From the NCBI GenBank assembly GCA_965220615.1, contig CBDCQL010000001.1, forward strand, positions 207,096-271,095: a stretch of DNA of 64,000 bases, in the 5' to 3' direction. A program made the translations under genes and the position numbers. Within the stretch, counting starts at the first letter, position 1. Every line of letters starts with the position of its first letter. The notes below the pieces were generated by a model. That model searched no databases. It was not told where the DNA came from and worked only from the letters and a program-made list of their open reading frames with translations. The DNA is from Phototrophicaceae bacterium (GTDB lineage Bacteria; Chloroflexota; Anaerolineae; Aggregatilineales; Phototrophicaceae). Positions 1-24,166 of this stretch are shown here, one piece after another.

Positions 1-36
1 CAAACTCGCCACGCCCATTCATGCGAATCCAAGAAT

Positions 37-1413
37 TCAAACCCGGACGCCTGCGGTGGTCAGGCGCAGCAACTGGCCCACGTCCTCCAGTTCCTCCAGG
101 TGGGCGCAGGCGTCGATGAGGGCGACGACGCCCTCTTCCGGCAGCAGATCGCCGGTCAGCTTGCGGAACTTGCCCTCGAACTCGGCAGCGCTCATCATGT
201 TTTCCGGCTCGCCACGGGCATATTCCACCCGGCCGCGGTACTGCCGGCCATCGTCCATGGTGATCCGCACCTCGCAGCCGTTCCGGCCGGCCTTTTCCAG
301 TTTCTCTTCCAGCCCCACCCTGACGCGGCGCCGCAGACGCCGCACCTGCGGGTCGTCCCAGGCCTGGATGTCCGCCTTGTAGAAGCTGCCGCGCTGCAGC
401 GTAACGGCCACGGTCACCGGCAGGCTGTAACAGGCCTGGTAGGCGTTCTCCGGTTCCGGGTCGACGCGGAAGTGAGGCGTGATCGCGTTCAGGTAGCTGT
501 CCACCTCGATGGCGGCGATGGCGTCCAGGTCGAGGTTGCCGTTGCTGTTGCGCAATGCCTGGGTGGCGTCCACGCAGGAGTGCACGTGGCGGCAACCGGC
601 GTGCGGCTTGAAGCCCGTCTCGGCCAGCGCCTGGCGCGTCCCCAGCGACTCCAGGATGGCCGGATCATATCCCGGGCCATAGGCGTGGAAGTAACCGTAG
701 GGGCCATCCAGCGCCCCGGGCGGCCCCCTGAAACCGAAGGCCGCCATGCGCGCCGCTTCAATGCCGTTGCGGGCCCCGATGCCGGAGAGCAGCGTGTCGC
801 AAACGAAGCCGTCGTAGACGTACTGCTCGGTGCCGCTGGCCATGTCCGTCGCCAGCGCCAGCGCGTTGCCGATCTGCTCCTGATCCAGGCCCATGGCAAC
901 CGCGGCCGTCACTGCGCTGGCCATCGAGCCCACGTGACTCTTGTGGTCCAGCCCGCGCTCGCGTTGCCAGTCCTTCACCGTCGGCTGTATGGCTTCGAAC
1001 ACGTCGTAGCCGACCGCCAGGGCCGTGATCAACTCGCGTCCGCTGAGTCGCAATTGTTCGCCCAGCACCAGCAGCAGGGGCACCAGCTCCGCCGCCACGT
1101 GCCCTGCCAGCCGGCTGGTGTCGTCCATGCCCAAGGCGTGGGCCATGACGCCATTGGCCAGGGCGGCGCCCTCAAGCGTGCAGGCGCGGCCGTCCGCGAT
1201 CAGCGTCGCCTCATCGCCCGGGTAATGGCGCGCGGCGAAGTCCGCCATCATCCGGCCCCGGCGCGTCCGGTAACCGCCCAGGGAGGTGCCCAAGGTGTCC
1301 AAAATCACCTGGCGGGCGCGCAGGATCGTCTTTTCGCCCAGGTCTTCGTAGCGCAGCGTCGCGGCGTGCGCAGCGATGACGTCCACAGCATTTTTCTTCG
1401 TGGCCACAGTCAT
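37..1413 (-). CDS. MmgE/PrpD family protein, paralog 1 (type B, no KDL insertion)
   Basis: ORF 37..1455. Family-typical blocks AVDVIAAHAA.LRYEDL, RARQVILDTLGTSLGG, GLDHKSHVGSMASAVTAAVAMGL, DMASGTEQYVYD, GFKPHAGCRHVHSCVDAT. Start trimmed to ATG 1413 (MTVATKK) with GAAAGG upstream. Confidence 0.85.
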   Translation of the reverse strand: MTVATKKNAVDVIAAHAATLRYEDLGEKTILRARQVILDTLGTSLGGYRTRRGRMMADFAARHYPGDEATLIADGRACTLEGAALANGVMAHALGMDDTSRLAGHVAAELVPLLLVLGEQLRLSGRELITALAVGYDVFEAIQPTVKDWQRERGLDHKSHVGSMASAVTAAVAMGLDQEQIGNALALATDMASGTEQYVYDGFVCDTLLSGIGARNGIEAARMAAFGFRGPPGALDGPYGYFHAYGPGYDPAILESLGTRQALAETGFKPHAGCRHVHSCVDATQALRNSNGNLDLDAIAAIEVDSYLNAITPHFRVDPEPENAYQACYSLPVTVAVTLQRGSFYKADIQAWDDPQVRRLRRRVRVGLEEKLEKAGRNGCEVRITMDDGRQYRGRVEYARGEPENMMSAAEFEGKFRKLTGDLLPEEGVVALIDACAHLEELEDVGQLLRLTTAGVRV

Positions 1414-1493
1414 GAGAGAGCCTTTCTGCCTCAAGCCACCTTGCGGCGGCGTCACGGGAGAGCGGCGGCGCGCCTGGCTTTCGTTGCCGCGCT

Positions 1494-2876: not shown

Positions 2877-2999
2877 TGCCCAACCTTTCTGTCTTCGCTC
2901 GCCGTCAGGCAAGCGCATGCCTGGGGAGTGTGCGGGCGACATGATATGTCGCCCCTACATCATCAAACTCGCCACTCCCATTCCTGCGAAACGAAGAAT

Positions 3000-4370
3000 T
3001 CAAACCCTGACGGCGACGGCGCTCAGGCGCAACAGTTCGCCGACGTCGTCCAGTTCCTCAAGGCGATTGCAGGCATCGATGAGAGCGCTGACGCGGGCTT
3101 CCGGCAGCAGGTCGCCGTTGAGGTAACGCAACTTGCCTTCAAACTGTGCGGCGCTCATCATGTTTTCCGGTTCGCCGAGGGCGTATTCCACCCTGCCGCT
3201 GAACTGGCGACCGTCCGTCGTGGTGACCCGCACCTCGCAGCCATTGCTGTCGGCGGTCACCAGTTTCTCGTCCAGGCCGATCTTCACCAGACGCCGCAGA
3301 CGGCGCGTCTCGGCCTCGTCCCAGGTGTCGATGTCGTCGTTGTACCAGGTGCCACGCTGCAAAACGACGGCGACCGTGGTGGGCATGCTGAACTGGGCCT
3401 GCTCGGCAGACTCCGGCTCCGGATTGATGCGAAAGTCGGGCGTCATCGCCGAGGGATAGCTGCCGATTTCGATGGCGCTGATGGCTTCCAGTTGCAGACC
3501 CCCGTTGCTGTTACGCAGGGCCTGGGTGGCATCCACACAGGAGTGGACGTGACGGCAGCCGGCGTGCGGTTTGAAGCCCGTATCCGCCAGCCCCTGGCGC
3601 CGGCCCAGCCCTTCCAGTGCGGCCGCGTCGTAGCCCGGGCCAAAGGCGTGGAAGTAGCCGTAGGGCCCGTCCAGCGCCCCCGGCGGCCCCTGAAAGCCGA
3701 ACTCCGCCAGGCGCGCCGCAAAGATGCCGTTGCGCGCGCCGATGCCGGCCAAGGTCGTGTCGCAATCCGCGCCGTCGTAGACGTACTGCTCGGTGCCGCT
3801 GGCCATGTCCATCGCCAGCGCCAGGGCGTTGCCGATCTGCCCCTCGTCGAGGCCCATCGCCACGGCCGCCGTCACGGCGGTGGCCATGGAACCCACGTGG
3901 CTCTTGTGGTCGAGGCCGCGCTCGCGCTGCCAGTCCCGAACCACGGGTTGAATGGCGTCGAAGACATCGTAACCGACGGCCAGCGCCGTGATCAGTTCCC
4001 GACCGCTGAGCTGCAGATGCTCACCCAGCGCCAGCACGGCCGGCACCAGCTGCGAGGCCACGTGCCCGGAAAGGCGGCTGGTGTCGTCCATCTCAAGCAG
4101 ATGGCAGAGGACGCCGTTGGCCCAGGCCGCGCCCTCGACGCTGCTGCTACGGCCGTCGACGGCGATCGTCGCCTCCTCGCCCGGCATCCGCAGCGCGGCG
4201 TAGTCCGCCGTCATCCGACCCAGGTCCGTCTGGTAGCCGCCCAGCGAGGTGCCCAGGGTATCCAGAATCACCTGACGCGCGCGCGTGACGGTCGTCTCGC
4301 TGAGGTCCTCGTAGCGCAGCTTCGCGGCGTGCGCGGCAATAATCTCCACGGCATTTTTGTTTTTGCTCAT
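3000..4370 (-). CDS. MmgE/PrpD family protein, paralog 3 (type B)
   Basis: ORF 3000..4370, MSKNKNAVEIIAAHAAKLRYEDL. Shares HKSHVGSM, ALRNSNG and PENMMSAA states with paralog 1. GAGAGGG lies upstream of the ATG. Confidence 0.85.
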   Translation of the reverse strand: MSKNKNAVEIIAAHAAKLRYEDLSETTVTRARQVILDTLGTSLGGYQTDLGRMTADYAALRMPGEEATIAVDGRSSSVEGAAWANGVLCHLLEMDDTSRLSGHVASQLVPAVLALGEHLQLSGRELITALAVGYDVFDAIQPVVRDWQRERGLDHKSHVGSMATAVTAAVAMGLDEGQIGNALALAMDMASGTEQYVYDGADCDTTLAGIGARNGIFAARLAEFGFQGPPGALDGPYGYFHAFGPGYDAAALEGLGRRQGLADTGFKPHAGCRHVHSCVDATQALRNSNGGLQLEAISAIEIGSYPSAMTPDFRINPEPESAEQAQFSMPTTVAVVLQRGTWYNDDIDTWDEAETRRLRRLVKIGLDEKLVTADSNGCEVRVTTTDGRQFSGRVEYALGEPENMMSAAQFEGKLRYLNGDLLPEARVSALIDACNRLEELDDVGELLRLSAVAVRV

Positions 4371-4465
4371 CAGTCAATGACCCTCTCTGCCTGAATTTAG
4401 CTGGCAGGGCGCGCCGCCGCGGACAGCCCGCGACGGACGCGCTCTTTTGTCTCAAATGACCCTTC

Positions 4466-5848
4466 TCAAGCCCTGATCCTGGCGGAGGCCAGACTCAGCA
4501 ACTCGCCGACGTCGTCCAGTTCCTCAAGGCGGGCACAGGAATCGAGCAGGCCGACGATTTGCTCCTCGGGCAGCAGGTCCCCGACGAGATAGCGGAACTT
4601 GCCCTCGAACTCCGCGTCGCTCAACATGTTTTCCGGCTCGCCGAGGGCGTAAGCCACCTCGCTGCTGTACTGTTTGCCATCGCGCGTGTTGATGCGCAGC
4701 TTGCAGCCGTTTCCGCCGGAGTTCTCCAGTTCCTCGTCCAGCTCAACCTTGACCAGACGCCGCAGATGGCGCGTCATGGGCTCGTCCCAGGTCTCGATAT
4801 CCGTGCGGTACCAGGCGCCGCGCTGCAGGACGACGGCGACGGTCACCGGCAGGCTGAAACCCGCCTGGCCGGTTGTCTCCGGTTCGGGATCGATGCGGAA
4901 GAAGGGGTTGATCGCCTCGTAATAGCTGCCGATCTCGATCGAGGTGATGGCCTCAAGGTCCAGACCGCCGTTGCTGCGCACCAGCGCCTGGGTCGCATCG
5001 ACGCAGGAGTGCACGTGGCGGCAACCGGCGTGCGGCTTGAAGCCCGTCTCCGCCAGGCCGCCGCGCTTCCCCAGGACCTCCAGGTAGGCCGGGTCGTAAC
5101 CCGGGCCAAAGGCGTGGAAGTAACCATACTCACCGTCCAGGGCGCCGGGCGGGCCCTGGAAGCCGAATTCGGCCATGCGCGCCGCCATGATGCCGTTGCG
5201 CGCGCCCAGCCCGGCCAGCAGGTCCTTGGTGTCGCAGTAACCGGCGTCCCAGACGTACTGTTCGGTGCCGCTGGCCATGTCCATCGCAAGGGCCAGCGCC
5301 TGGCCGATCAGCTCCTCACTCAGCCCCATGGCGACCGCCGCCGTGACGGCGCTGGCCATCGAGCCCACCTGACTCTTGTGGTCCAGGCCGCGCTCGCGCT
5401 GCCAGTCCCGCACCCAGGGCTGAATGGCGTCGAAGACGTCGTAGCCCACGGCCATCGCAGTGATCAGGTCGCGACCGGCCAGATTCAGATGCTCGCCGAG
5501 GGCCAGCACGACCGGCGCCAGTTCCGAGGCCACGTGCCCCGAAAGACGGCTGGTGTCGTCCATGCCCAGGAACTTGCACATGGTGCCGTTGGCCCAGGCC
5601 GCGCCCTCGGCGTTGCTGCTGCGCCCGTCGGCGATGATCGTCGATTCCTCACCCGGCATGCGGTGCGCGGCGTATTCCGCCGCCAGCCGGCCCAGACGCG
5701 TCTGGTAGCCGCCCAGGGCGGTGCCGATCGTGTCCAGAATCACCTGACGGGCGCGGATGATCGCCGTCTCGCTCAGGTCCTCATAGCGCAGGTTGGCGGC
5801 GTGCGCGGCGATGACGTCCACGGCATTGCGACCATTACTCGTGCTCAT
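4466..5848 (-). CDS. MmgE/PrpD family protein, paralog 4 (type A)
   Basis: ORF 4466..5854. Shares HKSQVGSM, CDTKDLLAG and PENMLSDAE states with paralog 2. ATG 5848 (MSTSNGRNAVDV) with GAGAGG 8 nt upstream is preferred over TTG 5854. Confidence 0.85.
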   Translation of the reverse strand: MSTSNGRNAVDVIAAHAANLRYEDLSETAIIRARQVILDTIGTALGGYQTRLGRLAAEYAAHRMPGEESTIIADGRSSNAEGAAWANGTMCKFLGMDDTSRLSGHVASELAPVVLALGEHLNLAGRDLITAMAVGYDVFDAIQPWVRDWQRERGLDHKSQVGSMASAVTAAVAMGLSEELIGQALALAMDMASGTEQYVWDAGYCDTKDLLAGLGARNGIMAARMAEFGFQGPPGALDGEYGYFHAFGPGYDPAYLEVLGKRGGLAETGFKPHAGCRHVHSCVDATQALVRSNGGLDLEAITSIEIGSYYEAINPFFRIDPEPETTGQAGFSLPVTVAVVLQRGAWYRTDIETWDEPMTRHLRRLVKVELDEELENSGGNGCKLRINTRDGKQYSSEVAYALGEPENMLSDAEFEGKFRYLVGDLLPEEQIVGLLDSCARLEELDDVGELLSLASARIRA

Positions 5849-5878
5849 AATCAAAACCTCTCTACTCTCGGCCCGCTG

Positions 5879-7060
5879 TCACTGGCGCAGCAGGGCACGT
5901 AACTCCCGGGTGACGTGATCGATATCCTCACGCGTAAATTCCTGCGTCACGGGCAGGGTCAACAAGCGGTCGGCCAGGCAGTCGGTGACCGGCAGCCTGG
6001 CGGCGTTGGGCAGGCCGTGGCGATAGACCTCGTAGTGGTGCACCGGGGGCGTGTAGTGCAGCGCCGCCTCGACGCCGGCGGCGCGCAAGCCATGGTAACA
6101 CTCCTGCTGGTTGTCGACGCCGATAGTGAAGGAACGAAAAGTGGGTTCGGATTCGGGACGGAAGGTCGGCAAGGTCGCCGGGATGCCGGCCAGGCCCTCG
6201 CGGTACCACTGGACGATCTCCCGTCGCTGCTGCGTCCAATGGCGCAGATACGGCAACTTGACGTGCAAAACGGCGGCCTGCAGGCCATCCAGCGAGAGAT
6301 TGTAGCCCTCGTCGATGGCGTACTGCCGGCCCGGAATCTCCGCTTCCCAGTCCTCGCTGCGGCCGGCGCCGTAGGCGGTCAGCAGGCGCAACTTCTCGTG
6401 CACCTGCGGCTCGCTGGTCGCCACCGCCGCGCCACTGCCGACGCCGCCGAAGGGCTTGTAGGGCGCGAAACTGAAGACGACGGCATCGGCGAACACGCCG
6501 ACGCTGCGGCCATAATCGCGCGCGCCGGTGGCGAGGCAGGCATCCTCGACGATCATCAGGCCATGGCGGTCGGCGATCTCGCGCAGGCGCTTCACGTCGG
6601 CGGGGTGGCCGTGCATGTCGACCGGCAGCAGGGCGCGGCTGCGATCGCTGATCAGGGGCTCCACGAGGTCCGGGTCCATGTTGTAGTCGCTGGCGCGCAG
6701 GTCGCAGAGGACGGGCGTGGCGCCGCAGTTGCTGATCGCCGCCGTGGTGGAAATATCGGAATTGGCGACCGTGATGACCTCGTCGCCGGGGCCCACGCCG
6801 CAGGCGCGCAGGGCCAGAAAGAGGCCGCAGGTGCCGGAGTGCACGCCCACCGCCCAAGTCTGCTCCACTTCGGCAGCGAAGGCTTCCTCGAAGTCCTTGC
6901 GGGCGCGATAGCTGCTGTCGTTGGCGCTGAAGAGCATCGGTTCCAGCGCGGCCAGGATCTCCTCGCGCAGGGCCTGATGGGTGAGGTAGTTGCGCGAGCG
7001 CGGGATGGCGAAGCGGCCCTGTTCGGCGTAAATCCGTTCTTCCTGTGAAAGTGTGACCAT
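5879..7060 (-). CDS. DegT/DnrJ/EryC1/StrS-family PLP-dependent aminotransferase
   Basis: ORF 5879..7129. Motifs AVGVHSGTCGLFLALRA, DEVITVANSDISTTAAI, MIVEDACLATGA and VVFSFAPYKPFG (Lys-bearing PLP motif). Start trimmed to ATG 7060 (MVTLSQ) behind AGGAGG; the longer ORF would overlap the upstream permease stop at 7080. Confidence 0.8.
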   Translation of the reverse strand: MVTLSQEERIYAEQGRFAIPRSRNYLTHQALREEILAALEPMLFSANDSSYRARKDFEEAFAAEVEQTWAVGVHSGTCGLFLALRACGVGPGDEVITVANSDISTTAAISNCGATPVLCDLRASDYNMDPDLVEPLISDRSRALLPVDMHGHPADVKRLREIADRHGLMIVEDACLATGARDYGRSVGVFADAVVFSFAPYKPFGGVGSGAAVATSEPQVHEKLRLLTAYGAGRSEDWEAEIPGRQYAIDEGYNLSLDGLQAAVLHVKLPYLRHWTQQRREIVQWYREGLAGIPATLPTFRPESEPTFRSFTIGVDNQQECYHGLRAAGVEAALHYTPPVHHYEVYRHGLPNAARLPVTDCLADRLLTLPVTQEFTREDIDHVTRELRALLRQ

Positions 7061-7079
7061 GGGCGCCTCCTGTACCCGC

Positions 7080-8015
7080 TCAGTCGCGGCCACGCACGTT
7101 GGGGTCGAGCGAATCGCGCAGCCAGTCACCGAGGAAGACCACGCCCAGCACGGTGATGGTGATGGCGATGCCCGGGTAGGCCGTCATCCACCAGGCGCTG
7201 TTGATCACCGACTTGCCGTCCGCCAGCTGGATTCCCCAGGTCACCGTGGGCGGCTTGACGCCCAGGCCCAGGAAACTGAGTGAGGACTCGGCGAGCATGG
7301 TGATGCCGACCTGCAGCGCGGCCAGCACGATGGCCGAGGCGATCACGTTCGGCAGGATGTGATGCAGCACGACCCAAAGCGGCCGCTGGCCGATGGACCA
7401 GGCCGCCAGGACGTAATCGTTTTCGCGCGCCTTGAGCACCTCGCCACGGATCACGCGCGCGTAGGTCACCCAGCCCGAGAGGCCGAGAATCAGAATCAGC
7501 GTGACGAGGCCCGGCCCGACGATGCCCGAGATCGCCACGACGCGGATCACGAAGGGAATGCTGAGCATGGCGTCGCAGATGCGCATCATGAAGCCGTCGA
7601 CGCGCCCGCCAAGAAAGCCGCTGGTCAGGCCATACAATACGCCGATGGTGCCGGCGATCATGACCGCCACCACGCCTACCAGCACCGACACGCGACTGCC
7701 GACCAGAATGCGGCTGAAGATATCGCGCCCCAGCTGGTCTGTGCCCAGCAGATGAGTCGCCCCGTCGTCGCCCGTGAAGCCGGGCGGTTTGTAGCGGGTG
7801 CGCAGGTTGCCGCGGATCGGATCGTGGGGAACGATGTAGGGACTGATCAGCGCCAACACAATGACCAGGGAAATGATGCCCGTCCCGATCAGTCCGATGG
7901 GACTGCGCCGCAGCAGCGACAGCAGCGAAGGCTGGCGCGAATGACCGGTGACCAGAGTCGCCACCTCGCCTTCGGACTGTGCGGAAGCGGCAGGCTCGCC
8001 GGGCCCTGTGCTCAT
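7080..8015 (-). CDS. ABC transporter permease, DppC/OppC-like (peptide/nickel type)
   Basis: ORF 7080..8057. Polytopic membrane protein with LLGTDQLGRDIFSRIL and a BPD-transport signature region (AWSIGQRPLWVVLHHILPN). ATG 8015 is preceded by GGAGGC and follows the upstream stop at 8032. Confidence 0.8.
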   Translation of the reverse strand: MSTGPGEPAASAQSEGEVATLVTGHSRQPSLLSLLRRSPIGLIGTGIISLVIVLALISPYIVPHDPIRGNLRTRYKPPGFTGDDGATHLLGTDQLGRDIFSRILVGSRVSVLVGVVAVMIAGTIGVLYGLTSGFLGGRVDGFMMRICDAMLSIPFVIRVVAISGIVGPGLVTLILILGLSGWVTYARVIRGEVLKARENDYVLAAWSIGQRPLWVVLHHILPNVIASAIVLAALQVGITMLAESSLSFLGLGVKPPTVTWGIQLADGKSVINSAWWMTAYPGIAITITVLGVVFLGDWLRDSLDPNVRGRD

Positions 8016-8031
8016 ATTGTCTGCCTCCACG

Positions 8032-8949: not shown

Positions 8950-8981
8950 GGATTTCGCCGCCCTCGTTCGGGGAAAAGGTG

Positions 8982-9016: not shown

Positions 9017-9026
9017 GGTGAATCAC

Positions 9027-10749: not shown

Positions 10750-10754
10750 CTGCG

Positions 10755-13597: not shown

Positions 13598-13657
13598 GCT
13601 TCCTCCTCTCGCTTGTGTACCGCACACTTGCCCGCTTCGCGCGGGTCTCAATCCGCT

Positions 13658-14632: not shown

Positions 14633-14671
14633 GTTCAGGCCTCCTGCATCTGCCCCTGACGGGAGAAGTGA

Positions 14672-15706: not shown

Positions 15707-15762
15707 GTCTTGCCTCCCTGCCTGAATCCGGCGCAAGAGGGGCGCCGTCTGCCCATGTTACC

Positions 15763-17688
15763 CTATGGAACCGGTGCCAGATACCTCAGAAACCAGTCCC
15801 GAATGCGGTGCAGGCGCTCGATGCGATTGCCCGGTCGCCCGCTGGTGGATAGCCCGTGGTTTTCTCCTTCAAAGATGACCAGTTCGACCGGCCGGCGGCG
15901 CCAGCGCAGCGCCCCGTAGAGCTGCTCGGCCTGTTCCAGACTGGTGCGATGGTCCTGGTCGCTGTGGATGATCAGCAGCGGCGTGTGGCAGTCGTCCATG
16001 TAGGCGATGGGCGACTGGCGCCAGTCGTCCTCCGGCGTCGTCCAGCGCTCCGGCCCGATGTCGGAGGTGCCGAAGTGGCTGAGGTTGTTGGTGATCGAGC
16101 GCTGGGCGACGGCCGCGGCGAAACGGTCCGTGTGGCCCACGATCCAGTTGGTCATGAAGCCGCCGCAGCTGCCGCCGGTCACGCCCATGCGCTCGCCGTC
16201 GATCCAGGGATGGCGCCGCAGCAGGTCGTCCACGCCCAGCATGGTCTCGCGGTAGTCCGCGCCGCCCTGGTCACCCTGGCTGGCCCAGGTCCACTCCTGA
16301 CCGTAGCCGGCGGTCGTGCCACGCTGGTTGAAGTAGGCCACGGCGAAACCCGAGTTGGCGTAGATCTGGTGCTCGTGGTTGAAGTCCTGGCAGAACATCG
16401 AGCAGTGCACGTAGAGCACCAGGGGATAGCGGCGCTGAGGGTCGAAATCCAGCGGCCGAATCAACCAAGAATGAATCGGCACGCCATCCAGGCCTTCGTA
16501 TTCGTAGCTTTCCGGCTGTGACAGCCGCAGGTCGCGCAGCCAGGGGTTGAGGTCGGTCAGACACTCGCTGCGGCCGGCGCGCCAGAGGACCAGTTCGCCC
16601 GGGCTGGACGGGCTGGCCACTCCGCAGGCGACGAGGTCGCCGACGGCCGGGCTGTACTGAAAGACCGTGCTCTCGCCACGGATCAGGCGCTCGCTGCGGC
16701 CGTCGACGTCACCGCGCCAGAGGTTGGCCGCGCCGCGCTCGGTCAACTGGAAGTAGAACCAGCGATCGCCGTGCGCCCATTTGACGGATACGTTGGCCAG
16801 CCCCGGCCGCTGGTCGGAGACACCGTAGTTGCCGACTTCCGCGTCGAGCGCCTCGTCCAGTTCGGCGGCGGTGCCGGCCTCCACATCGGCGACGCAGGGA
16901 TGCCAGTGATTGCGACGGTTCACCGGCGGCGCATGGTTGTGGCCGGCGAAAGCGATGTGGCGGTCGTCGTTGCCCCAGGCCGGGCTGACGGCCGAGCCCT
17001 GCCAACCCGGCAGCAGGGGGCGCGGCGCCGGGCCGGGCGGCCAGTCGCAGAGGTAGATCTGGCCCTGACCCGCCGGGATGTCCTGCTCGCGCGCAGTGGC
17101 GACGAAGGCCAGACGCGTGCCGTCCAGGCTCCAGGCCGGTTCCGAGTAATCGCACTCGCTGTGCGTGACTTGCTGCAAGTCGCCCGTGACCGCGTTAATC
17201 ACGACGATCTGCTGGTAGCGATCGTGCACCCAGCCGAGGCCGTCGCGCTTGTAACGCAGGCGCCGGATCACCTTGATGGTCGGCGCGGGCACGCCTGGTT
17301 GCGGACCGCGGCGTTCCAGCGGGTGCCGCATCGGGGTCCAGCGCGCCGCCGCCAGATGGATGCCATCCGGCGCCCAGTCCAACCCGCCGACCGGCTCGTC
17401 GCCCAGCGGAATGTTCCGCTCCGTTCCATCTGCGAGGCGCAGGATGCGCAGGGAGTTGCCATCGGCGTCCTGCTGATTCCAGGCGAGTTGCGCGCCGTCG
17501 CGGCTCCAGGCCAGGGAAGAGGCGCGGCTGGCGCCGGCCGTCAAACGTTGTGCGGCGCTATCCTCCAGGTGACGCAAATACAGGTGAATGCGGTAGCCGT
17601 TGGTCTCGCCGTCCGGCGCGCGCAGGCTGTAGGCGACGCGGCTGCCATCCGGCGCGAGGGCAATCTCCTCCAGCCAGCGGAAGTTCAT
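15763..17688 (-). CDS. S9-family serine peptidase (acylaminoacyl-peptidase / dipeptidyl-peptidase type) with N-terminal beta-propeller, paralog 1
   Basis: ORF 15763..17688. Catalytic-triad context GVTGGSCGGFMTNW, IIHSDQDHRT, FEGENHGL. The N-terminal half has WD/TolB-like propeller repeats (LAWSRDG, LDWAPDG, PAWSLDG, PAWGNDD). Confidence 0.85.
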   Translation of the reverse strand: MNFRWLEEIALAPDGSRVAYSLRAPDGETNGYRIHLYLRHLEDSAAQRLTAGASRASSLAWSRDGAQLAWNQQDADGNSLRILRLADGTERNIPLGDEPVGGLDWAPDGIHLAAARWTPMRHPLERRGPQPGVPAPTIKVIRRLRYKRDGLGWVHDRYQQIVVINAVTGDLQQVTHSECDYSEPAWSLDGTRLAFVATAREQDIPAGQGQIYLCDWPPGPAPRPLLPGWQGSAVSPAWGNDDRHIAFAGHNHAPPVNRRNHWHPCVADVEAGTAAELDEALDAEVGNYGVSDQRPGLANVSVKWAHGDRWFYFQLTERGAANLWRGDVDGRSERLIRGESTVFQYSPAVGDLVACGVASPSSPGELVLWRAGRSECLTDLNPWLRDLRLSQPESYEYEGLDGVPIHSWLIRPLDFDPQRRYPLVLYVHCSMFCQDFNHEHQIYANSGFAVAYFNQRGTTAGYGQEWTWASQGDQGGADYRETMLGVDDLLRRHPWIDGERMGVTGGSCGGFMTNWIVGHTDRFAAAVAQRSITNNLSHFGTSDIGPERWTTPEDDWRQSPIAYMDDCHTPLLIIHSDQDHRTSLEQAEQLYGALRWRRRPVELVIFEGENHGLSTSGRPGNRIERLHRIRDWFLRYLAPVP

Positions 17689-17764
17689 CAGGTCTTCGGG
17701 GATGAGACCGCGTTGTCGTTCCGCCCCGCCTGCGATGTAAACCTCCCCCCTGCCTGGCCTGCAG

Positions 17765-19753
17765 TTACAGGTACTTCAGAAACCAGTCCTGAATGCGATG
17801 GATGCGCTCGATGCGGTTGCCCGGCCGGCCGCCGCGCGAAAGGCCGTGGTCCTCGCCCTCAAAGATGACCATCTCCACCGTCTTGCCGTACCAGCGCAGG
17901 GCGGCGAAGAGTTGCTCGGCCTGCTCCAGGTCGGTGCGATGGTCGGCGTCACTGTGGATGATCAGCATGGGCGCGTTGAAGTCCTTCGCGTAGGCCACGG
18001 GCGACTGGCGCCAGACCTCCATCAGGTCTTCCCAGGGTTCCGCGCCGGTCTCGCCGCTGCTGCACTCCGGGCCGATATCCGAGGTGCCGAACATGCTGAT
18101 GTTGTTGACGATGGAGCGCTGGGCCACGGTAGCGGCGAAGCGCTCCGAATGGCCGGCGATCCAGTTGGTCAGGTAACCGCCGCAGCTGCCGCCGGTGGCG
18201 CCCATGCGTTCCCCGTCGATCCAGGGATGTTTGCGCAGCAGGTCGTCGACGCCCAACATGATTTCCTCGTAGTCCGCGCCGCCCTGGTCGCCCTCGGTGG
18301 CCTTCGTCCAGGCTTGGCCGTAACCGGCGGTGGTGCCGCGCTGGTTGAAGTAGGCCACGGCAAAGCCCGAGTTGGCGTAGACCTGGAACTCGTGGTTGAA
18401 GTCCCAGCAGAACATGGAGCAGTGCAGGTAGAGAATGAGGGGGTAACTGCCCTGCGGGTCGTAATCCAGCGGGCGAATGAGCCAGGCGTGCACCGGCACG
18501 CCGTCCACGCCCTCGAACTCGTAACTCTCCGGCAGCGAAAGACTGACGTCGCGCAGCCAGGGGTTGAGGTCGGTCAGGCGCTCGCTGTCGCCGTCGCGCC
18601 AAATATACAGGTCGCCCGGGCTGGAGGGATCGGCCATGCCGTAGGCTGCCAGGTCGCCGCAGGCGGGGCTGTATTCGAAATGCGTGCACTCGCCCCGCAG
18701 CAGCCGTTCGGACGCGCCTTGCGCGTCGATGCGCCAGAGGTTGGCCGCGCCGCGCTCGGTCAGCAGGAAGTAGATCCACCTGTCGCCCGGCGCCCACTTG
18801 ACCGTGACGTTGGTCAGACTGACGCGCTGGTCGGCGACGCCGTAGTTGCCGACCTCCTCGTCGATGTCCTCGTCCAGCTTGACCGCCGTACCGGCGGCCA
18901 CGTCGGCGAGGTGCGGCTGCCAGAAGTTGCGGCGATTGGTCGGCGGCGGATGGTTGTGGCCGGCGAAGGCGATGTAGCGATCATCGGCGCCCCAGGCCGG
19001 ACTGACGGCCGTGCCCTGCCAGTCGGGCAGGAGCGGGCGCGGCCCTTCCCCGCCCGGCCAGTCACAGAGGTAGATGTGTCCCTGGCCCTCGGGGATGTTC
19101 TGTTCGCGCGCCGTGCCGACGAAGGCCAGGCGCGAGCCGTCTCCGCTCCATTTCGGCGTCTCGTAGTCGCTCTCGCTGTGGGTCACCTGGTCGAGGTCGC
19201 CGGTGACGGTATCCAGCACGAAAATCTGGGAATAACGATCGTGCACCCAGCCGATGCCGTCCCGCTTGTAACGCAGGCGCCGCACCACCTTGATGTGCGG
19301 CTGCGGCATGTCCGGCAGAGGTCCGCGGTCTTCATGCGGATGTCGCAACACGGTCCAGCGCGCGCCCGCCAGATGGACTCCGTCCGGCGACCAGTCGAGG
19401 CCGCCGAGGGGCTCGGCGCCCAGGGGGATGACGTGGCGTCGGGCCTCCGCCACCTGCCAGATGCACACAGAACAACCATCGGCCGTGCTGTGGCTCCAGG
19501 CCAGTTGCGCACTGTCGCGGCTCCAGGCCAGCGACGAGACGCGGCAGGCGCCACTGGTCAGGCGGCGCGCGCTGCCACCATCCAGGCGGCGCAGATAGAG
19601 GTGCGCGCGGTAGCCATCAGCCTCGCCGTCCGGTTCGCGCACGCTGTAGGCCACCATGTTGCCATCCGGCGCGAGGACAATTTCCTCCAGCCAGCGGAAG
19701 TTCATCAGATCTTCGGGGATGAGGCCGCGACGTCTTTCTGCCGTGTTTTCCAT
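17765..19753 (-). CDS. S9-family serine peptidase, paralog 2
   Basis: ORF 17765..19831. Start taken at ATG 19753 (MENTAERRRGLIPEDLMNFRWLEE); ATG 19765 is also possible. Contains GATGGSCGGYLTNW, IIHSDADHRT, FEGEDHGL. About 70 percent identical by eye to paralog 1. Confidence 0.85.
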   Translation of the reverse strand: MENTAERRRGLIPEDLMNFRWLEEIVLAPDGNMVAYSVREPDGEADGYRAHLYLRRLDGGSARRLTSGACRVSSLAWSRDSAQLAWSHSTADGCSVCIWQVAEARRHVIPLGAEPLGGLDWSPDGVHLAGARWTVLRHPHEDRGPLPDMPQPHIKVVRRLRYKRDGIGWVHDRYSQIFVLDTVTGDLDQVTHSESDYETPKWSGDGSRLAFVGTAREQNIPEGQGHIYLCDWPGGEGPRPLLPDWQGTAVSPAWGADDRYIAFAGHNHPPPTNRRNFWQPHLADVAAGTAVKLDEDIDEEVGNYGVADQRVSLTNVTVKWAPGDRWIYFLLTERGAANLWRIDAQGASERLLRGECTHFEYSPACGDLAAYGMADPSSPGDLYIWRDGDSERLTDLNPWLRDVSLSLPESYEFEGVDGVPVHAWLIRPLDYDPQGSYPLILYLHCSMFCWDFNHEFQVYANSGFAVAYFNQRGTTAGYGQAWTKATEGDQGGADYEEIMLGVDDLLRKHPWIDGERMGATGGSCGGYLTNWIAGHSERFAATVAQRSIVNNISMFGTSDIGPECSSGETGAEPWEDLMEVWRQSPVAYAKDFNAPMLIIHSDADHRTDLEQAEQLFAALRWYGKTVEMVIFEGEDHGLSRGGRPGNRIERIHRIQDWFLKYL

Positions 19754-19782
19754 GTCAACCCCCATAGCCGATTGTTCCGCGC

Positions 19783-20778
19783 TCAGGTCAGGCTGGTGAC
19801 TGTCTCCTCCACCACGCCGAAGAAACAACACCAGTGTCCTTCCAGCACCGAAGGACGTGAGCGCATGCCAAAGATGAGGCCATCCTGCGGCGCGTTGACT
19901 GTGGCGATGACATCGCCGTAGAGATCGTAGATCGAGCCAATGAGCGTCCCGGCGGGGACGAGGGTCTCAAAGGGCAGTTCCGGGTTGCCGACGTACATGC
20001 CGGTGGCCGGCGCCAGCAGGGGAATCTGGTAGCCCGTATGCCAGCGCTCCTCGTAGCTCGCTTCACCGTCGATCATGTCGTAGTGACGCAGGACGTTCAG
20101 GTAGCCCTCCGCCAGATCATTGGCGATGCCGTGGAAATCCGCGCCCAGCGTGCGGCAGTTGCCGCCCAGCTCGACGGTGATACCGGCGCGGCCGTCCGCC
20201 GCGATCTGCGAGGAGGGGTTGGCGCCGCCCGTGCCGCTGCGGAAGACCAGCGGCCAGCCGGAGCCCATGGCCGCCGCCAGTTCCATGCTGGCCGGGTTGT
20301 CCGAAGCGAAGATCATGTGCGCCAGGTAGGAATGCTCACCACCGGAATGGATGTTGATCTGCAGGTCGCAGCAATCCTTCATCGCCAGCCAGTGGGCGTA
20401 AGCGCCGCGCTCGGTCGGGTAGCCGTCGGGCTTGCCGGGATAGAGCCGATTCATGTCGTAGGCGAAGCCGTCCAGGGGATCGCCGCGGGTGCCGGCCGTG
20501 AAGGCCGGTACGTTCATCACCGGCACGGCGACAATCGTGCCGCGCAATTGCTGTGCGTCCACCTGCTCCAGCGTTCGAAAGATGGAGAAGGGGCCTTCGG
20601 GCTCGTCGCCGTGCGTCGCCCCGTTCAGCCAGAGCACCGGGCCGTCGCCGGCGCCGCGCATCACAATCAGGGGGATCTCCCGCTCGCGCGGGAACATGTC
20701 CGGGTTGACGGGAATGCCGCCACGCGCGGTCTCGCCCGGCATCACACTCACGTTGCCAAATTTCATTGCCTGTGTCAC
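19783..20778 (-). CDS. AstE/AspA family deacylase-like zinc hydrolase
   Basis: ORF 19783..20778. MKFGNVSVMPGETARGGIPV..., canonical NGATHGDEPEG and LQINIHSGGEHSY. Confidence 0.8.
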   Translation of the reverse strand: MTQAMKFGNVSVMPGETARGGIPVNPDMFPREREIPLIVMRGAGDGPVLWLNGATHGDEPEGPFSIFRTLEQVDAQQLRGTIVAVPVMNVPAFTAGTRGDPLDGFAYDMNRLYPGKPDGYPTERGAYAHWLAMKDCCDLQINIHSGGEHSYLAHMIFASDNPASMELAAAMGSGWPLVFRSGTGGANPSSQIAADGRAGITVELGGNCRTLGADFHGIANDLAEGYLNVLRHYDMIDGEASYEERWHTGYQIPLLAPATGMYVGNPELPFETLVPAGTLIGSIYDLYGDVIATVNAPQDGLIFGMRSRPSVLEGHWCCFFGVVEETVTSLT

Positions 20779-20805
20779 GAAGCTACTCCTGTTCGCATCC
20801 TGCTG

Positions 20806-21873
20806 CTAAAGCGGGAAATCCACGTCCAGTATTTGCGCCAGTTCACGCAATCCCTCGACGGTCTCGCGCGCGACCGGTACGCCGTCGCGCCGGCGTTCTT
20901 CCATCCGTTTGAACTCGATTTCGCCCGGCAGCAGGATCGGCCGTGCCGGGTCGATCGCCGGTGCCCCCTTGACCTCGGCGACCAGCTCCTCAAGCCGACC
21001 CTGAAACTCCGCCTCGCCCATGAAGGCCTGCGGTTCAATGGCGACCATGACGTGACCGACGTCGTAGTTTTGCTCATCCTGAAAGACGTTCATGCCGAAG
21101 AGCGCACCGGTCATCACGCCGGCCAGCACGTCGCTGACGAAACTGAGGCCGTAGCCCTTGTATTCGCCGATGGGCAGCATCGGGCCGTCCATGGCCGCGC
21201 CGGGGTCGGTGGTCTCGCGGCCGTCGGCGGTCAGGGCCCAGTTGGCGGGCATCGGCCGTCCCTCCTGCAGGTACCAGCGCATCATGCCCTTGCCGGACAT
21301 CGTCAGGGCCATGTCCAGCACGATGGCGTGGGTGGCCGTGCGCGGGATGGCGAAGCCCCAGGGGTTGGTGCCCAGCACCGGCAGCGCCGAGCCCCAGGGC
21401 GCCATTTCGGCGGCGGCGTTGGTGAAGGCCCAGCCGACGAGGCCGGCCTTCGCCGCCTGCAAGGCGTGGTAGCCGGCGATGCCGAAGTGGTTGCTGTGGC
21501 GCACGCCGACGATGGCGATGCCGGTCTCGCGGGCCTTTTCGATGGCGCGTTTCATGGCGCGATGCGCGGCGACGTAGCCGAAACCCTTCGCCGCATCCAG
21601 CAGGGCGAAGGAGGGCCCCTCGCGCAGCCAGGTCATCTCCACGCCGGGCAGGATGCCGCCCTCGTGCACCCGTCGCCGGTAACGAAAGAACTTCTCCAGG
21701 CCCTGGCCCTGCCCCGGGTGCCACCACTGCGCCGCCGTCAGCACGCCATCGCTGACGCTGGCGGCTTCATCTGCCGTGGCCCCCAGCGCCTGCAGAAAGT
21801 CGAGCGCGAATCCCTGCAGCGTCTCCAGCGGGTAGTGGTTGACAAGGTCGCGATTGCGGATTTCGTAGGCCAT
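20806..21873 (-). CDS. Ldh_2 family (malate/L-lactate dehydrogenase type 2; Pyr2C/Pip2C-reductase-like) oxidoreductase
   Basis: ORF 20806..21873. Contains VGVRHSNHFGIAGYHA, LGTNPWGFAIP, GEYKGYGLSFVSDVLAG. Confidence 0.85.
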   Translation of the reverse strand: MAYEIRNRDLVNHYPLETLQGFALDFLQALGATADEAASVSDGVLTAAQWWHPGQGQGLEKFFRYRRRVHEGGILPGVEMTWLREGPSFALLDAAKGFGYVAAHRAMKRAIEKARETGIAIVGVRHSNHFGIAGYHALQAAKAGLVGWAFTNAAAEMAPWGSALPVLGTNPWGFAIPRTATHAIVLDMALTMSGKGMMRWYLQEGRPMPANWALTADGRETTDPGAAMDGPMLPIGEYKGYGLSFVSDVLAGVMTGALFGMNVFQDEQNYDVGHVMVAIEPQAFMGEAEFQGRLEELVAEVKGAPAIDPARPILLPGEIEFKRMEERRRDGVPVARETVEGLRELAQILDVDFPL

Positions 21874-21875
21874 GC

Positions 21876-23051
21876 TCAGTTGGCCGATCCGTTGCCGAGT
21901 TCCGCCCGGATGCCTTCCATGGCGATCTTCATGCGTTCCAGGCCCTCGCGCAGTTTGTCCTCCGGCTGCAGGAAGGTCATGCGAATGTATTGCTTGCGGG
22001 CTTCGGAGAAGGCCGAACCGGGATAGACCAGCACGTGTTGCTCGGTCAGCACGCGCTGGGCGAACTGCATGCTGTCCATGCCGGTGAAGCCGATGTCGGC
22101 AAAGATGAACTGGCCGCCTTCGGGCACGCCGTACTCAATGCCCATGTCGTCCAGCGCCTCCAGCACGGCGCGACGACGCCGCACGTAGGTATCGGCCATC
22201 ATCTGGACGGGCTCCTGCGGCCCGGTCAGGGCGGCGATGCCGGCGTACTGCGAGATGATGGAGGTGGCGCCGGTGATGGCCGCCTTCAGTTCACGCAATC
22301 TTTCCATCAATGGCGCCGGCCCGGTCACCCAGCCGACGCGCCAGCCGGTCATGGAATAAGCCTTGGAAAGCGCGTTGAGGGTCAGCGTGCGCTCGCGTGC
22401 GCCCGGCATGGCGGCTGCGCTGGTATGCACGACGTCGTCGTAGACGAAGAGGTCGTAGATCTCGTCGGAGATGATGAAGAGGTCACGGTCGCAGGCGATT
22501 TGCACCAGGTCCCGCATGTCCTGCGGGGAGATGACGCTGGCGGCCGGGTTGTTGGGCGAAACCAGCAAGAGCGCTTTCGTCCGCTCGTTCACGGTGCGGC
22601 GCACGTCGGCGGGGTCGGCGCGGAAATTTTGCTGTGGAAAGGTGTCAACCTCGATCTGGCGTCCGCCGGCGAAGCGGGTGGAATCCAGATAGGTGTTGTA
22701 GTTCGGTTCCGGCACGACCATTTCGTCGCCGGGGCCGATGAGGGTAAGCACCATGAGGAACAGCGCTTCCTGCCCGCCGTTGGTCACCACGACTTCAGTG
22801 GCGGGATCGTAGGCTACGCCGCTGACGCGCTCGACGCGCGCCGCGATCGCCTCGCGCAGCACCGGCAAGCCTTCCGGCGGGGAGGTGTCGCTGTGGTTCT
22901 GCACCATGGCCTCTTTCGCGGCGGCGATGATGTGTTCGGGCGTGTCAAAGTCCGGGTCGCCACGTCCCATGATGACGGCGTCGTCATAACTGGCCGCCTC
23001 GGCCATCATGGAGTAGAGCAGGTTGGTACCGCTTTTCTTCCGTTCGGGCAT
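21876..23051 (-). CDS. Class I/II PLP-dependent aminotransferase (aspartate-aminotransferase-like)
   Basis: ORF 21876..23051. Contains VSPNNPAA, ISDEIYDLFVYD, LNALSKAYSMTGWRVGW (Schiff-base Lys present). GAGGAGGAAGG lies upstream of the ATG. Confidence 0.85.
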   Translation of the reverse strand: MPERKKSGTNLLYSMMAEAASYDDAVIMGRGDPDFDTPEHIIAAAKEAMVQNHSDTSPPEGLPVLREAIAARVERVSGVAYDPATEVVVTNGGQEALFLMVLTLIGPGDEMVVPEPNYNTYLDSTRFAGGRQIEVDTFPQQNFRADPADVRRTVNERTKALLLVSPNNPAASVISPQDMRDLVQIACDRDLFIISDEIYDLFVYDDVVHTSAAAMPGARERTLTLNALSKAYSMTGWRVGWVTGPAPLMERLRELKAAITGATSIISQYAGIAALTGPQEPVQMMADTYVRRRRAVLEALDDMGIEYGVPEGGQFIFADIGFTGMDSMQFAQRVLTEQHVLVYPGSAFSEARKQYIRMTFLQPEDKLREGLERMKIAMEGIRAELGNGSAN

Positions 23052-23068
23052 GGCGCCTTCCTCCTCGT

Positions 23069-24166
23069 TCAGGCGTCGGCAAGCAGGTCAAGGGCGGCGC
23101 AAGCCGCATCGCAAACCGTCAGGCGCAACACGTCCGGCGCGCCGAAATCGCTGCCGTCCGCCACCTGATAGCCCGCTGCGGCCAGGCGAGACAGACCCTG
23201 CGCCTTCTGTGCATTGGGCAGGCGCAGCGCCAGCAAGCTGGCCGCCGCGCCCGCCAGCACGTCGAGGCCGGCGGCGCGGGCGCGTTCCTGCAGCCCTGTG
23301 CGCAGGGCCTGCATGTGCTCCAGACGCGCGGGCTGCTCCTCCTCGTAGAGGCTGCCCGCCTCCAGCGCGCCAAACTGCGCGGGCGTGGCCGTGCAGATGG
23401 CCATGATCTGTTTCTGCGACTGAATCGGCGGCAGCCAGTCTTCCGGCACGGCGATGTAACCGGCCAGCCAGCTGGCGATGCCAGCGCCGGGGAAGGCCTC
23501 GCCGATCAGCGCGACGTGCTCCGTCGGCGCAGGGACATTCCCCGCCGCCCAGGGCGCCAGGCCCCGGTCGATGATCACGCTGGCGTCATGGTCGGCCAGC
23601 AGGGCGGCGATGGCCGCCATCTCGTCCCCGTCCAGGGTCGCGCCGCTGAGACGCGAGGGCGATTCCACATATAGCAGGCGACTGCCGCCTTCCAGCGCTG
23701 CGCGAATGGCCTCCAGCCGCGGCAGACTACGTTCCGCATCAACCGCCAGCGAGACCGTCTCGCGCGGGCGGGCGCCGAGGGCCTTGCGCACACCGGGATG
23801 CACGACCTCCGGCAGGGCGATCGCCCCGTCGCCGGCGTCGATGAGTTGCAGGGTGAGGAAACGGGATTCCTGCATGCCGGCCGTGACCAGCAGGTTGGCC
23901 GCGCTCCAGTCCGCGCCAGTGGCCTCGCTGAGGTGCTGCGCCAGAGCCGCGCGCAGGTCGTCGATGCCCGGCACGGGTTCGTAATGGGTGTGGCCGGCGT
24001 CGAGCGCGGCGCCGGTGGCTTCGATGATGCGCTCGTCCAGGGGGCCGACGACGGCATCCGCGGCCAGGTCCAGCGCGTTGCGGGCGGCGGCGGGGATGAC
24101 GGCGGCGTTCAGGTCTTCGTTGACGCGATGCCGCTGCAACAGGGCAGCGACGGAATCAGGGGGCAT
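23069..24166 (-). CDS. Aminotransferase class I/II-fold protein lacking the catalytic lysine (probable pseudoenzyme); first gene of the cluster
   Basis: ORF 23069..24166. Collinear with class-I aminotransferases (THYEPVPGIDDLRAALAQHL, LLVTAGMQES). The NPxNPTG position reads ESPSRLSG, DEIY reads DRGL, and the SxSK..G.R.GY position reads GEAFPGAGIASWLAGY, with no Lys. Confidence 0.65.
   Translation of the reverse strand: MPPDSVAALLQRHRVNEDLNAAVIPAAARNALDLAADAVVGPLDERIIEATGAALDAGHTHYEPVPGIDDLRAALAQHLSEATGADWSAANLLVTAGMQESRFLTLQLIDAGDGAIALPEVVHPGVRKALGARPRETVSLAVDAERSLPRLEAIRAALEGGSRLLYVESPSRLSGATLDGDEMAAIAALLADHDASVIIDRGLAPWAAGNVPAPTEHVALIGEAFPGAGIASWLAGYIAVPEDWLPPIQSQKQIMAICTATPAQFGALEAGSLYEEEQPARLEHMQALRTGLQERARAAGLDVLAGAAASLLALRLPNAQKAQGLSRLAAAGYQVADGSDFGAPDVLRLTVCDAACAALDLLADA

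Follow-up and report, generated by a model that had tools for sequence, protein, structure and literature searches.

The window analysed here is a 64,000-nt (64-kb) stretch of contig CBDCQL010000001.1 (assembly GCA_965220615.1, positions 207,096–271,095) from a Phototrophicaceae bacterium of the phylum Chloroflexota, and our subject is the run of 18 consecutive minus-strand genes that fills its positions 37–24166. Open reading frame (ORF) listing with translation, together with Pfam assignments that all exceeded the gathering score, bears out the 18-gene, one-strand inventory of a first-pass annotation made from the letters alone: four MmgE/PrpD proteins, one DegT protein, two Dpp/Opp-type permeases, two family-5 binding proteins, one M24-like protein, three AstE/AspA-like proteins, two S9 proteins, one Ldh_2 protein and two class-I aminotransferase-fold proteins, with gaps between genes ranging from a few bases up to 135 bp. 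The genes are listed below with the basis for each assignment in brackets; residues of the PrpD-like proteins are numbered as in human cis-aconitate decarboxylase (CAD), dN/dS is the ratio of non-synonymous to synonymous substitution rates, and PLP is pyridoxal phosphate.

37–1413, minus: g1, MmgE/PrpD-like, deletion type (CDT--LLSG), Lys207 equivalent removed (Pfam, motif, paralogue clade p4, dN/dS 0.17–0.24)
1494–2879, minus: g2, MmgE/PrpD-like, Lys type (CDTKDLLAG) (Pfam, motif, tree, dN/dS)
3000–4370, minus: g3, MmgE/PrpD-like, deletion type (CDT--TLAG) (Pfam, PDB alignments, motif, dN/dS)
4466–5848, minus: g4, MmgE/PrpD-like, Lys type (Pfam, motif, tree, dN/dS)
5879–7063, minus: g5, DegT/DnrJ/EryC1-family PLP aminotransferase (Pfam DegT_DnrJ_EryC1, SFxxxK lysine)
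7080–8015, minus: g6, OppC/DppC-like ABC permease (Pfam OppC_N and BPD_transp_1)
8032–8949, minus: g7, DppB-like ABC permease (Pfam BPD_transp_1_N and BPD_transp_1, dN/dS 0.01–0.12)
9027–10619, minus: g8, solute-binding protein of family 5, N-terminal segment resembling a signal peptide (Pfam SBP_bac_5)
10755–12344, minus: g9, family-5 solute-binding protein, 69% identical to g8 (Pfam SBP_bac_5)
12440–13597, minus: g10, pita-bread hydrolase with Creatinase_N and Peptidase_M24 domains and a non-canonical metal site (Pfam, alignment)
13658–14632, minus: g11, predicted AstE/AspA-fold pseudoenzyme (Pfam AstE_AspA_cat, residue alignment, dN/dS 0.08–0.12)
14672–15706, minus: g12, AstE/AspA-family zinc deacylase with canonical residues (Pfam AstE_AspA_cat, residue alignment)
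15763–17688, minus: g13, acylaminoacyl-peptidase-type S9 serine peptidase with a beta-propeller and an alpha/beta hydrolase domain (Pfam Peptidase_S9 and PD40)
17765–19753, minus: g14, S9 serine peptidase, 73% identical to g13 (Pfam Peptidase_S9 and PD40)
19783–20766, minus: g15, third AstE/AspA-family deacylase, canonical residues, found in some relatives only (Pfam AstE_AspA_cat)
20806–21873, minus: g16, Ldh_2-family NAD(P)H oxidoreductase (Pfam Ldh_2, structure matches)
21876–23051, minus: g17, class-I aminotransferase, PLP lysine kept in an SK motif (Pfam Aminotran_1_2)
23069–24166, minus: g18, predicted aminotransferase-fold pseudoenzyme, first gene of the unit (Pfam Aminotran_1_2, residue alignment)

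The remainder of the window (24–64 kb) has mixed strands and unrelated genes (toxin-antitoxin, TerC, glycosyltransferases, RNase Y and others), and the same-strand run is therefore not a general property of the contig.

Conservation and transcription of the gene set

Loci were collected with motifs from the four PrpD paralogues, run against a single genome for each species, which gave 56 loci; the 18 window proteins and the proteins found in relatives were compared with these by tblastn, and further loci added through the context of M24 homologues brought the total to about 60 (L001–L060). Apart from L049 and L050, the 56 loci carry labels of Anaerolineae, Aggregatilineales, Phototrophicaceae, Chloroflexota or Chloroflexi metagenome-assembled genomes (MAGs); isolate labels of the MAGs, taken as labels alone, name sponges, corals, sludge and microbial mats. 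The core order common to the approximately 60 loci is aminotransferase, aminotransferase, Ldh_2, S9, AstE, AstE, M24, PrpD, solute-binding protein, permeases, DegT, PrpD. In more distant loci, with the less constant members in brackets, it reads pseudo-aminotransferase, aminotransferase, (SDR or 2-hydroxyacid dehydrogenase), Ldh_2, (g15-type AstE), S9, g12-type AstE and g11-type AstE, followed by (OCD/mu-crystallin, one or two copies), M24-like, PrpD1, (MR/MLE), solute-binding protein, permease B, permease C, DegT and PrpD2. OCD, MR/MLE, SDR, RraA-like and GntR/FCD regulator genes are the variable extras; the cluster on a 4.1-Mb contig (L059), for example, comes with SDR, MFS_3, two OCD genes and MR/MLE. 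The same core is carried by a Deinococcota MAG (L057).

The same 12–14 families are therefore kept together across about 60 loci from at least two phyla. In a Chloroflexi MAG (L060), a GntR/FCD regulator gene overlaps the first cluster gene, and regulators of this family are typical of acid and amino-acid catabolic operons. The persistent association of these families, along with a GntR/FCD regulator in one relative, points to a functional unit with a catabolic role. The first-pass annotation had proposed one functional unit, a view that an arrangement conserved nowhere else would have undermined; the retention of gene order in some 60 other loci across phyla strengthens it. Its statement that the cluster holds no transcription factor has to be qualified by the regulator gene heading the cluster in L060.

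An exact-sequence look-up of g3 returned no record, and the region beyond position 1 was inferred from orthologous loci, of which the closest (L001–L004) show 89–93% DNA identity to the window; the cluster runs on past this point in loci with 91–93% identity. The suggestion that further PrpD copies might be found there proved correct: in L001, a fifth PrpD gene (14331–15707) comes after the orthologue of g1, and then an MR/MLE gene (~15724–16833) and a gene for an RraA-like protein of subfamily PRK08245 (16855–17607). The stop codon of the latter is overlapped at the distal cluster end by a murein-hydrolase-like gene with M23 and LysM domains (17604–18773), after which come opposite-strand genes. 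The succession of RraA and M23/LysM recurs in 10/10 close relatives (L001, L002, L004–L011). Among the eleven genes with close orthologues (g1–g5 and g7–g12), dN/dS ranges from 0.01 to 0.27; purifying selection acts on every gene tested, the degenerate g11 and the deletion-type g1 and g3 among them.

Two candidate signals lie upstream of g18:

24249–24277, minus: sigma70-like promoter candidate TTGACA-17-TAGGAT, 83 bp upstream of g18 (motif scan, relatives)
24223–24234, strand not assigned: perfect palindrome ATTGTCGACAAT, candidate operator between the promoter and g18 (counterpart in L024)

The coding strand of the cluster has no other strong sigma70-like site than this promoter candidate, and three relatives (L024, L046 and L053) have TTGACA-17-TATAAT at the equivalent place. 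On the same strand, no intergenic terminator-like site was found inside the cluster; the terminator-like hits all fall within genes, at a number no higher than expected from shuffling. An Rfam scan for a riboswitch that might name a ligand returned no family in the cluster, the only hit being a distant tRNA-Cys. The palindrome was set aside as an operator: it recurs in L024 only, where ATTGTCGACATT stands in place of ATTGTCGACAAT, and a single site of this kind is not above chance, which makes it a weak lead.

Some of the loci have peculiarities of their own. The cluster in L049 (labelled Pleurocapsa minor) and L050 (labelled betaproteobacterium), MAGs assigned to Cyanobacteria and Betaproteobacteria, has 57–77% protein identity to the window, reflecting either horizontal transfer or mis-binned Chloroflexota contigs; the L050 version includes genes for an M55 D-aminopeptidase, MFS_3 and a glyoxalase-fold protein inside the cluster. 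The same locus has a 712-aa ORF (14737–16875, plus strand) with N-terminal OppC_N/BPD_transp_1 and a complete DegT domain at the C-terminus, which is either a permease–DegT fusion or an assembly or frameshift artefact; a real fusion would physically tie DegT to the importer. Directly downstream of the cluster in L060 (17843–21155) lies a further small unit, with genes for a GntR/UTRA regulator, Amidohydro_2, Creatininase and a class-III aminotransferase.

Catalytic residues and nearest relatives

The S9 proteins g13 and g14 (147–161 bits in Pfam, plus a PD40 propeller) match structure 8wt1 with E = 6.5e-95, and their catalytic Ser (in GGSCGG), Asp and His are invariant in 38 sequences. 8wt1 is a bacterial acylaminoacyl-releasing enzyme (AARE) (PMC12485367). 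The assignment to the acylaminoacyl-peptidase type made at first pass is thus upheld, with N-acyl specificity as a prediction.

Three AstE-like deacylases had also been proposed. Two of them keep the zinc ligands and the catalytic Glu, invariant in orthologues (HGAE, DFH and LEF in g12; HGDE, IHS and VEL in g15), but the third, g11, has lost them: with SGME, DIR and AYI, the His of HxxE is replaced by Ser, the second His by Arg and the catalytic Glu by Tyr. This loss is shared by 49 orthologues, while the Pfam fold match remains significant, and in every locus that covers both, g11 directly adjoins a g12-type gene. Judging from these residues, g11 is a maintained pseudoenzyme. The best NCBIfam match of all three proteins is DoeB/EutE (TIGR02994), at 59.9, 99.8 and 95.8 bits against a cut-off of 402.7. 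Among named structures, g12 is best matched by AstE/aspartoacylase-family entries from structural genomics and by the N-acetyl-DABA deacetylase DoeB/EutE.

The M24 fold of g10 is recognised by Pfam, but its metal site is a different one: where prolidases and aminopeptidase P have D,D,H,E,E, the alignment gives E,E,H,H,S, invariant in 51 orthologues. The family is a rare one, with 329 clusters at E ≤1e-10 among 5.8 billion. By sequence, g10 is nearer to prolidases, and its NCBIfam matches at E ≤1e-5 are PRK09795 aminopeptidase and PepQ, the ectoine-hydrolase family being absent from them. Because of the non-canonical metal site, g10 is not to be called an Xaa-Pro peptidase, and the trimming of Xaa-Pro bonds first ascribed to it loses support.

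Of the three supposed PLP enzymes, two keep the lysine. In g17, the Schiff-base Lys and the PLP-phosphate Arg are both present (LSKAYSMTGWR, kept in 10 orthologues), and the protein scores on LL-diaminopimelate aminotransferase models, below their cut-off. The DegT protein g5 (291.8 bits in Pfam) has an SFxxxK lysine that is invariant in 47 orthologues, and reaches no sugar-aminotransferase equivalog in NCBIfam. The third, g18, falls outside this class: its PLP Lys is replaced by Pro (in 7/8 sequences, counting the window protein and seven orthologues), its phosphate-binding Arg by Leu, and further differences occur where NNP and the Tyr of SDEIY stand in g17. It nonetheless gives a Pfam fold match of 66 bits and is kept as the first cluster gene. 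The Ldh_2 protein g16, for which reduction of the cyclic imino acids Pyr2C and Pip2C had been envisaged, is nearer to malate dehydrogenase (1v9n, 1e-57) and sulfolactate dehydrogenase (5.1e-51) than to DpkA (1wtj, 8.4e-32), which argues against that role; its best NCBIfam match, sulfolactate dehydrogenase, scores 235 bits and stays below the 500-bit cut-off.

The four PrpD-like proteins (71–74% pairwise identity) match PF03972 and PF19305 (MmgE_PrpD_N and _C) at 151–166 and 79–95 bits against a threshold of 32.1, whereas g3 scores 48.2 bits on the PrpD equivalog of NCBIfam, which has a 950-bit cut-off. Their solved relatives are iminodisuccinate (IDS) epimerase (1.9e-26, the top match) and CAD (3.4e-23), about equally distant. 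Asp93, His103, Lys207 and Lys272 show strict conservation in CAD, IDS epimerase and 2-methylcitrate dehydratase (MCDH), and Lys207 is essential in CAD (PMC6789909); this residue list was used to map our proteins onto human CAD. Like these three enzymes, the window proteins have both Pfam domains and equivalents of His103 and Lys272, as well as Lys207 in g2 and g4; unlike them, they have Gly for Asp93 (Glu in g3), Cys for His277 and Phe for Tyr318. They also have a His one residue off the His159 position, as in MCDH. The Lys207 loop reads CDTKDLLAG in PrpD1, PrpD2, g2, g4 and the fifth copy, whereas in g1, g3 and all their orthologues a two-residue deletion (CDT--LLSG or CDT--TLAG) has removed the lysine. 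With Asp93 changed throughout and Lys207 deleted in two copies, the catalytic set of the three reference enzymes is incomplete. The chemistry on tricarboxylates such as iminodisuccinate suggested at first pass retains its top structural match but is weakened, since CAD is about equally close and two copies lack the essential lysine.

In a neighbour-joining tree, the PrpD-like proteins fall into five clades, one per paralogue, and the seven close relatives that were sampled contribute orthologues to every clade. The array, in which three copies with the lysine alternate with two without it (Lys, deletion, Lys, deletion, Lys; dN/dS 0.09–0.24), is therefore old and stable, and a recent or transient amplification was rejected. 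We found no precedent for five tandem PrpD-like paralogues.

The MR/MLE enzyme of relatives belongs to the muconate-lactonising subgroup. In the window's lineage, its best solved relative is 2p88, which we take to be the N-succinyl-Arg/Lys racemase of Bacillus cereus, followed at similar E-values by a muconate-lactonising enzyme and L-Ala-D/L-Glu epimerase.

For the binding proteins g8 and g9, the closest solved structures are AccA (agrocinopine) and NikA-type (nickel-chelate) binders, ahead of DppA/OppA, and both proteins also match the staphylopine binder CntA; the import of oligopeptides initially assigned to them is weakened accordingly. The gene set resembles Dpp/Opp importers in its family-5 binding protein and DppB-like and DppC-like permeases in canonical order, and differs from them in that DppD/DppF genes are missing and the AccA/NikA-like binding proteins are duplicated or triplicated. 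Of a complete importer, the binding protein and both permeases are thus encoded in the cluster and the two ATPases are not. A six-frame scan for Walker-A and LSGGQ motifs found no ABC ATPase in the window, and the 60 loci have none close to the cluster (~10 kb around the anchoring PrpD or M24 gene), the sole ATPase match among them standing beside a separate, opposite-strand permease pair (L021). The importer must therefore borrow ATPases encoded elsewhere. That they might lie just beyond position 1, as the first-pass annotation had supposed, was rejected on the evidence of the orthologous loci.

A candidate catabolic pathway and its competitors

No cluster protein reaches an NCBIfam equivalog cut-off (all key proteins tested), so homology assigns no reaction. 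Hydrolases, transaminases, oxidoreductases and an importer dominate the gene set, which has no ligase, synthetase, nonribosomal peptide synthetase or ATP-grasp gene, and this argues for catabolism rather than biosynthesis. The explanation we favour, with confidence a little short of even, is that Anaerolineae-type Chloroflexota have here a single catabolic module, transcribed together and conserved by vertical descent, for an amide-linked acidic small molecule or blocked peptide. For the substrate we infer a class such as terminally blocked or modified short peptides, or N-acyl-amino-acid conjugates.

Under this scheme, the exported binding proteins g8 and g9 would deliver the substrate to the DppBC-like permeases g7 and g6, with ATPase subunits supplied from elsewhere. 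In the cytoplasm, the S9 enzymes g13 and g14 and the atypical M24-fold g10 would cut amide or amidine bonds to give N-acyl amino acids, from which the AstE/AspA-type zinc deacylases g12 and g15 would strip the acyl group, g12 probably acting as a heteromer with its dead paralogue g11. The MR/MLE enzyme of relatives, encoded beyond position 1 and closest to N-succinyl-amino-acid racemase, may make D-forms accessible. The resulting amino or oxo acids would pass to g17 (with the dead g18 as its probable partner), the DegT protein g5 and the Ldh_2 protein g16, and in relatives also to OCD, SDR or 2-hydroxyacid dehydrogenases, before the PrpD-like proteins and an RraA-like aldolase or decarboxylase turn a di- or tricarboxylate product into central metabolites. 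The lineage of the window has expanded PrpD to five paralogues, the binding protein to two or three copies and S9 to two, against one S9 copy in more distant loci, which suggests a broadened substrate range.

Several points weigh against this scheme. No step has a homology-based reaction, the binding proteins resemble AccA/NikA-type binders more than DppA/OppA, and the non-canonical metal site of g10 makes peptidase activity doubtful. Within a peptide pathway, DegT and the PrpD-like proteins have been given their roles ad hoc, and the enzyme/pseudoenzyme heteromers are deduced purely from adjacency and conservation. The breakdown of peptides, N-acyl compounds or aminopolycarboxylates put forward at first pass appears plausible in outline, but its details (the roles of M24, Ldh_2, the binding proteins and PrpD) are unsupported or weakened. 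The nearest described parallels to the peptide steps, the AARE plus aminoacylase/aspartoacylase route and the N-succinyl-amino-acid racemase operons, share with the cluster an AARE-type S9 enzyme, intact AstE deacylases and an MR/MLE protein near 2p88; unlike it, they do not form one operon with an importer and have no PrpD-like, DegT or Ldh_2 proteins. AARE and an acylase are known as a pair in eukaryotes but, to our knowledge, not in bacterial operons.

A bolder version, which we consider unlikely but worth stating, builds an undescribed catabolic pathway on three obligate enzyme/pseudoenzyme pairs (g12/g11, g17/g18 and Lys-type/deletion-type PrpD) together with an E,E,H,H,S-type M24 hydrolase. 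Its substrate would be a non-proteinogenic, carboxylate-rich amide that is widespread in microbial habitats; candidates include derivatives of a muropeptide or of diaminopimelate, opine-like iminodiacids and cyclic amidines. The PrpD array of five copies would reflect diversification to several related substrates.

Among the rival explanations, the one that survives best takes g10 not as a peptidase but as an amidino- or amidohydrolase that opens the ring of a cyclic amidine, a lactam or a derivative of an imino acid; an ectoine-like solute or heterocycle would give an N-acyl amino acid, to be deacylated by AstE and then transaminated or passed to OCD/Ldh_2 redox steps. In ectoine catabolism, an M24-fold EutD/DoeA adjoins an AstE-family EutE/DoeB as a bimodule (PMC3187862), in clusters that also hold the OCD-family EutC and a transaminase (PMC3187862, PMC8739950). 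The AstE–AstE–(OCD)–M24 adjacency is kept in nearly all of our loci, DoeB is the best NCBIfam match of g11, g12 and g15, the OCD protein of relatives hits EutC, and g10 combines a Creatinase_N domain with an altered metal site; an aminotransferase and a binding-protein-dependent importer in the same operon are further common traits. The ectoine bimodule with EutC and a transaminase thus appears to be the closest described system for part of the cluster. The scores, however, lie far under the equivalogs (60–100 against 402.7 bits for DoeB, 145 against 471.65 bits for EutC), no EutD-named family is among the NCBIfam matches of g10 at E ≤1e-5, and g10 is nearer to prolidases in sequence. The importer here is of the family-5 ABC type rather than TRAP, the window's own lineage has no OCD gene, and the cluster occurs in Chloroflexota and Deinococcota, whereas eutD/eutE pairs are reported from Proteobacteria only. 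The cluster also differs in its additional Ldh_2 gene and dead paralogues. An ectoine-like route would leave the conserved S9, PrpD-like and DegT genes and the family-5 importer unexplained, and we regard it as rather improbable.

Catabolism of an aminopolycarboxylate, opine or metallophore, the alternative already named at first pass, with NikA/AccA/CntA-like import of an iminodiacid-type compound, PrpD-like epimerisation or cleavage and oxidation by OCD or Ldh_2 imine or opine oxidoreductases, is distinctly unlikely. It would account for the nearest relatives of the binding proteins, for IDS epimerase as the top solved relative of the PrpD-like proteins and for the presence of both Ldh_2 and OCD in relatives, the OCD family including iminosuccinate reductase. 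Against this, IDS epimerase is barely ahead of CAD, the Asp93 equivalent is Gly and Lys207 is missing from two copies; the cluster has no aspartase/fumarase-type C–N lyase, and the conserved S9, M24-like and three AstE-like hydrolases would have no role.

Salvage of peptidoglycan stem peptides or D-amino-acid peptides, comparable to MppA/Opp uptake, the amidase MpaA and the epimerase YcjG and with D-Glu or diaminopimelate conversion downstream, seems a long shot. The fold of MpaA is that of M14 carboxypeptidases, and dipeptide epimerases have a DxD motif. The MR/MLE enzyme is about as near to L-Ala-D/L-Glu epimerase as to its other top matches, but the alignment ended before the DxD motif, its local sequence being D-M-T-D. 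The M55 D-aminopeptidase in the betaproteobacterial version and the M23/LysM gene, whose overlap with the last gene of the cluster is shared by all ten close relatives, would suit murein salvage, yet both are lineage-specific and outside the core. AstE/AspA proteins do belong to the M14 carboxypeptidase fold (PMC3187862), and g17 scores on LL-diaminopimelate aminotransferase models; every model score is below cut-off, however, and the binding proteins are not MppA/OppA-like. The opine-type and murein-type variants each explain some accessory genes, while leaving conserved core genes unexplained.

Several unrelated same-strand operons, for which the 95–135 bp gaps flanking binding-protein and PrpD genes could hold internal promoters and the order differs between the window's lineage and distant loci (PrpD relocated, OCD lost), or a biosynthetic cluster, are very improbable given 12–14 families held together in at least two phyla, the lack of intergenic terminator-like sites on the coding strand, and the absence of ligases, synthetases or tailoring enzymes.

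Returning to the catabolic module that we favour, every fold in it is known and importer-linked catabolic operons are commonplace; it is the combination for which we found no description. A literature search returned no description of this gene combination, or of PrpD in sponge Chloroflexi, in agreement with the first-pass remark that it matches no described pathway. Its unusual features are three pairs of an enzyme with a dead paralogue, the re-engineered site of M24 and the PrpD array of five. Chloroflexota of the Anaerolineae/Aggregatilineales type are abundant and for the most part uncultured, and a 13- to 21-gene pathway kept intact in them under purifying selection points to a common organic substrate. 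The cluster contains whole enzyme subfamilies without an assigned reaction (the PrpD1 and PrpD2 types, M24 proteins with the E,E,H,H,S site, and the dead partners among the AstE and aminotransferase proteins). Once known, the ligand of the binding proteins would annotate several hundred entries now named "Xaa-Pro aminopeptidase" or "MmgE/PrpD family protein", and would provide a concrete case of pseudoenzyme partners in bacterial catabolism.

Genes flanking the cluster

Directly upstream of the cluster lies a low-GC island (0.53 against ~0.67; 24330–25921, plus strand) of two genes. The first (24330–25532) encodes an HTH_3 plus Peptidase_M78 protein of the spr1629 repressor/antitoxin type, and at its stop codon starts a gene for a PemK/MazF-like toxin (25532–25921). 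The island has the look of a toxin-antitoxin module that was acquired. As a divergent gene, the HTH gene at 24330 had been considered but was rejected as a regulator of the cluster, being the antitoxin-like half of the toxin pair. Further along, a PIN-domain (VapC-like) ORF (26755–27231, minus strand) adjoins a TerC membrane protein gene (25929–26669), and a di-haem (DHOR-like) protein is encoded at 29592–31169 (plus strand).

A cell-envelope sugar cluster occupies ~37–54 kb, with genes for GT4, a PfkB kinase, an NTP-transferase, an MGDG-synthase-like protein, UDP-glucose dehydrogenase and an acyltransferase. It includes a single 602-aa ORF (38149–39957, plus strand) that joins GT9 heptosyltransferase-like and WecG/TagA glycosyltransferase domains. 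A sulfite-oxidase-type molybdopterin oxidoreductase is encoded at 42753–43955 (minus strand), and the tRNA-Cys gene lies at 36909–36979.

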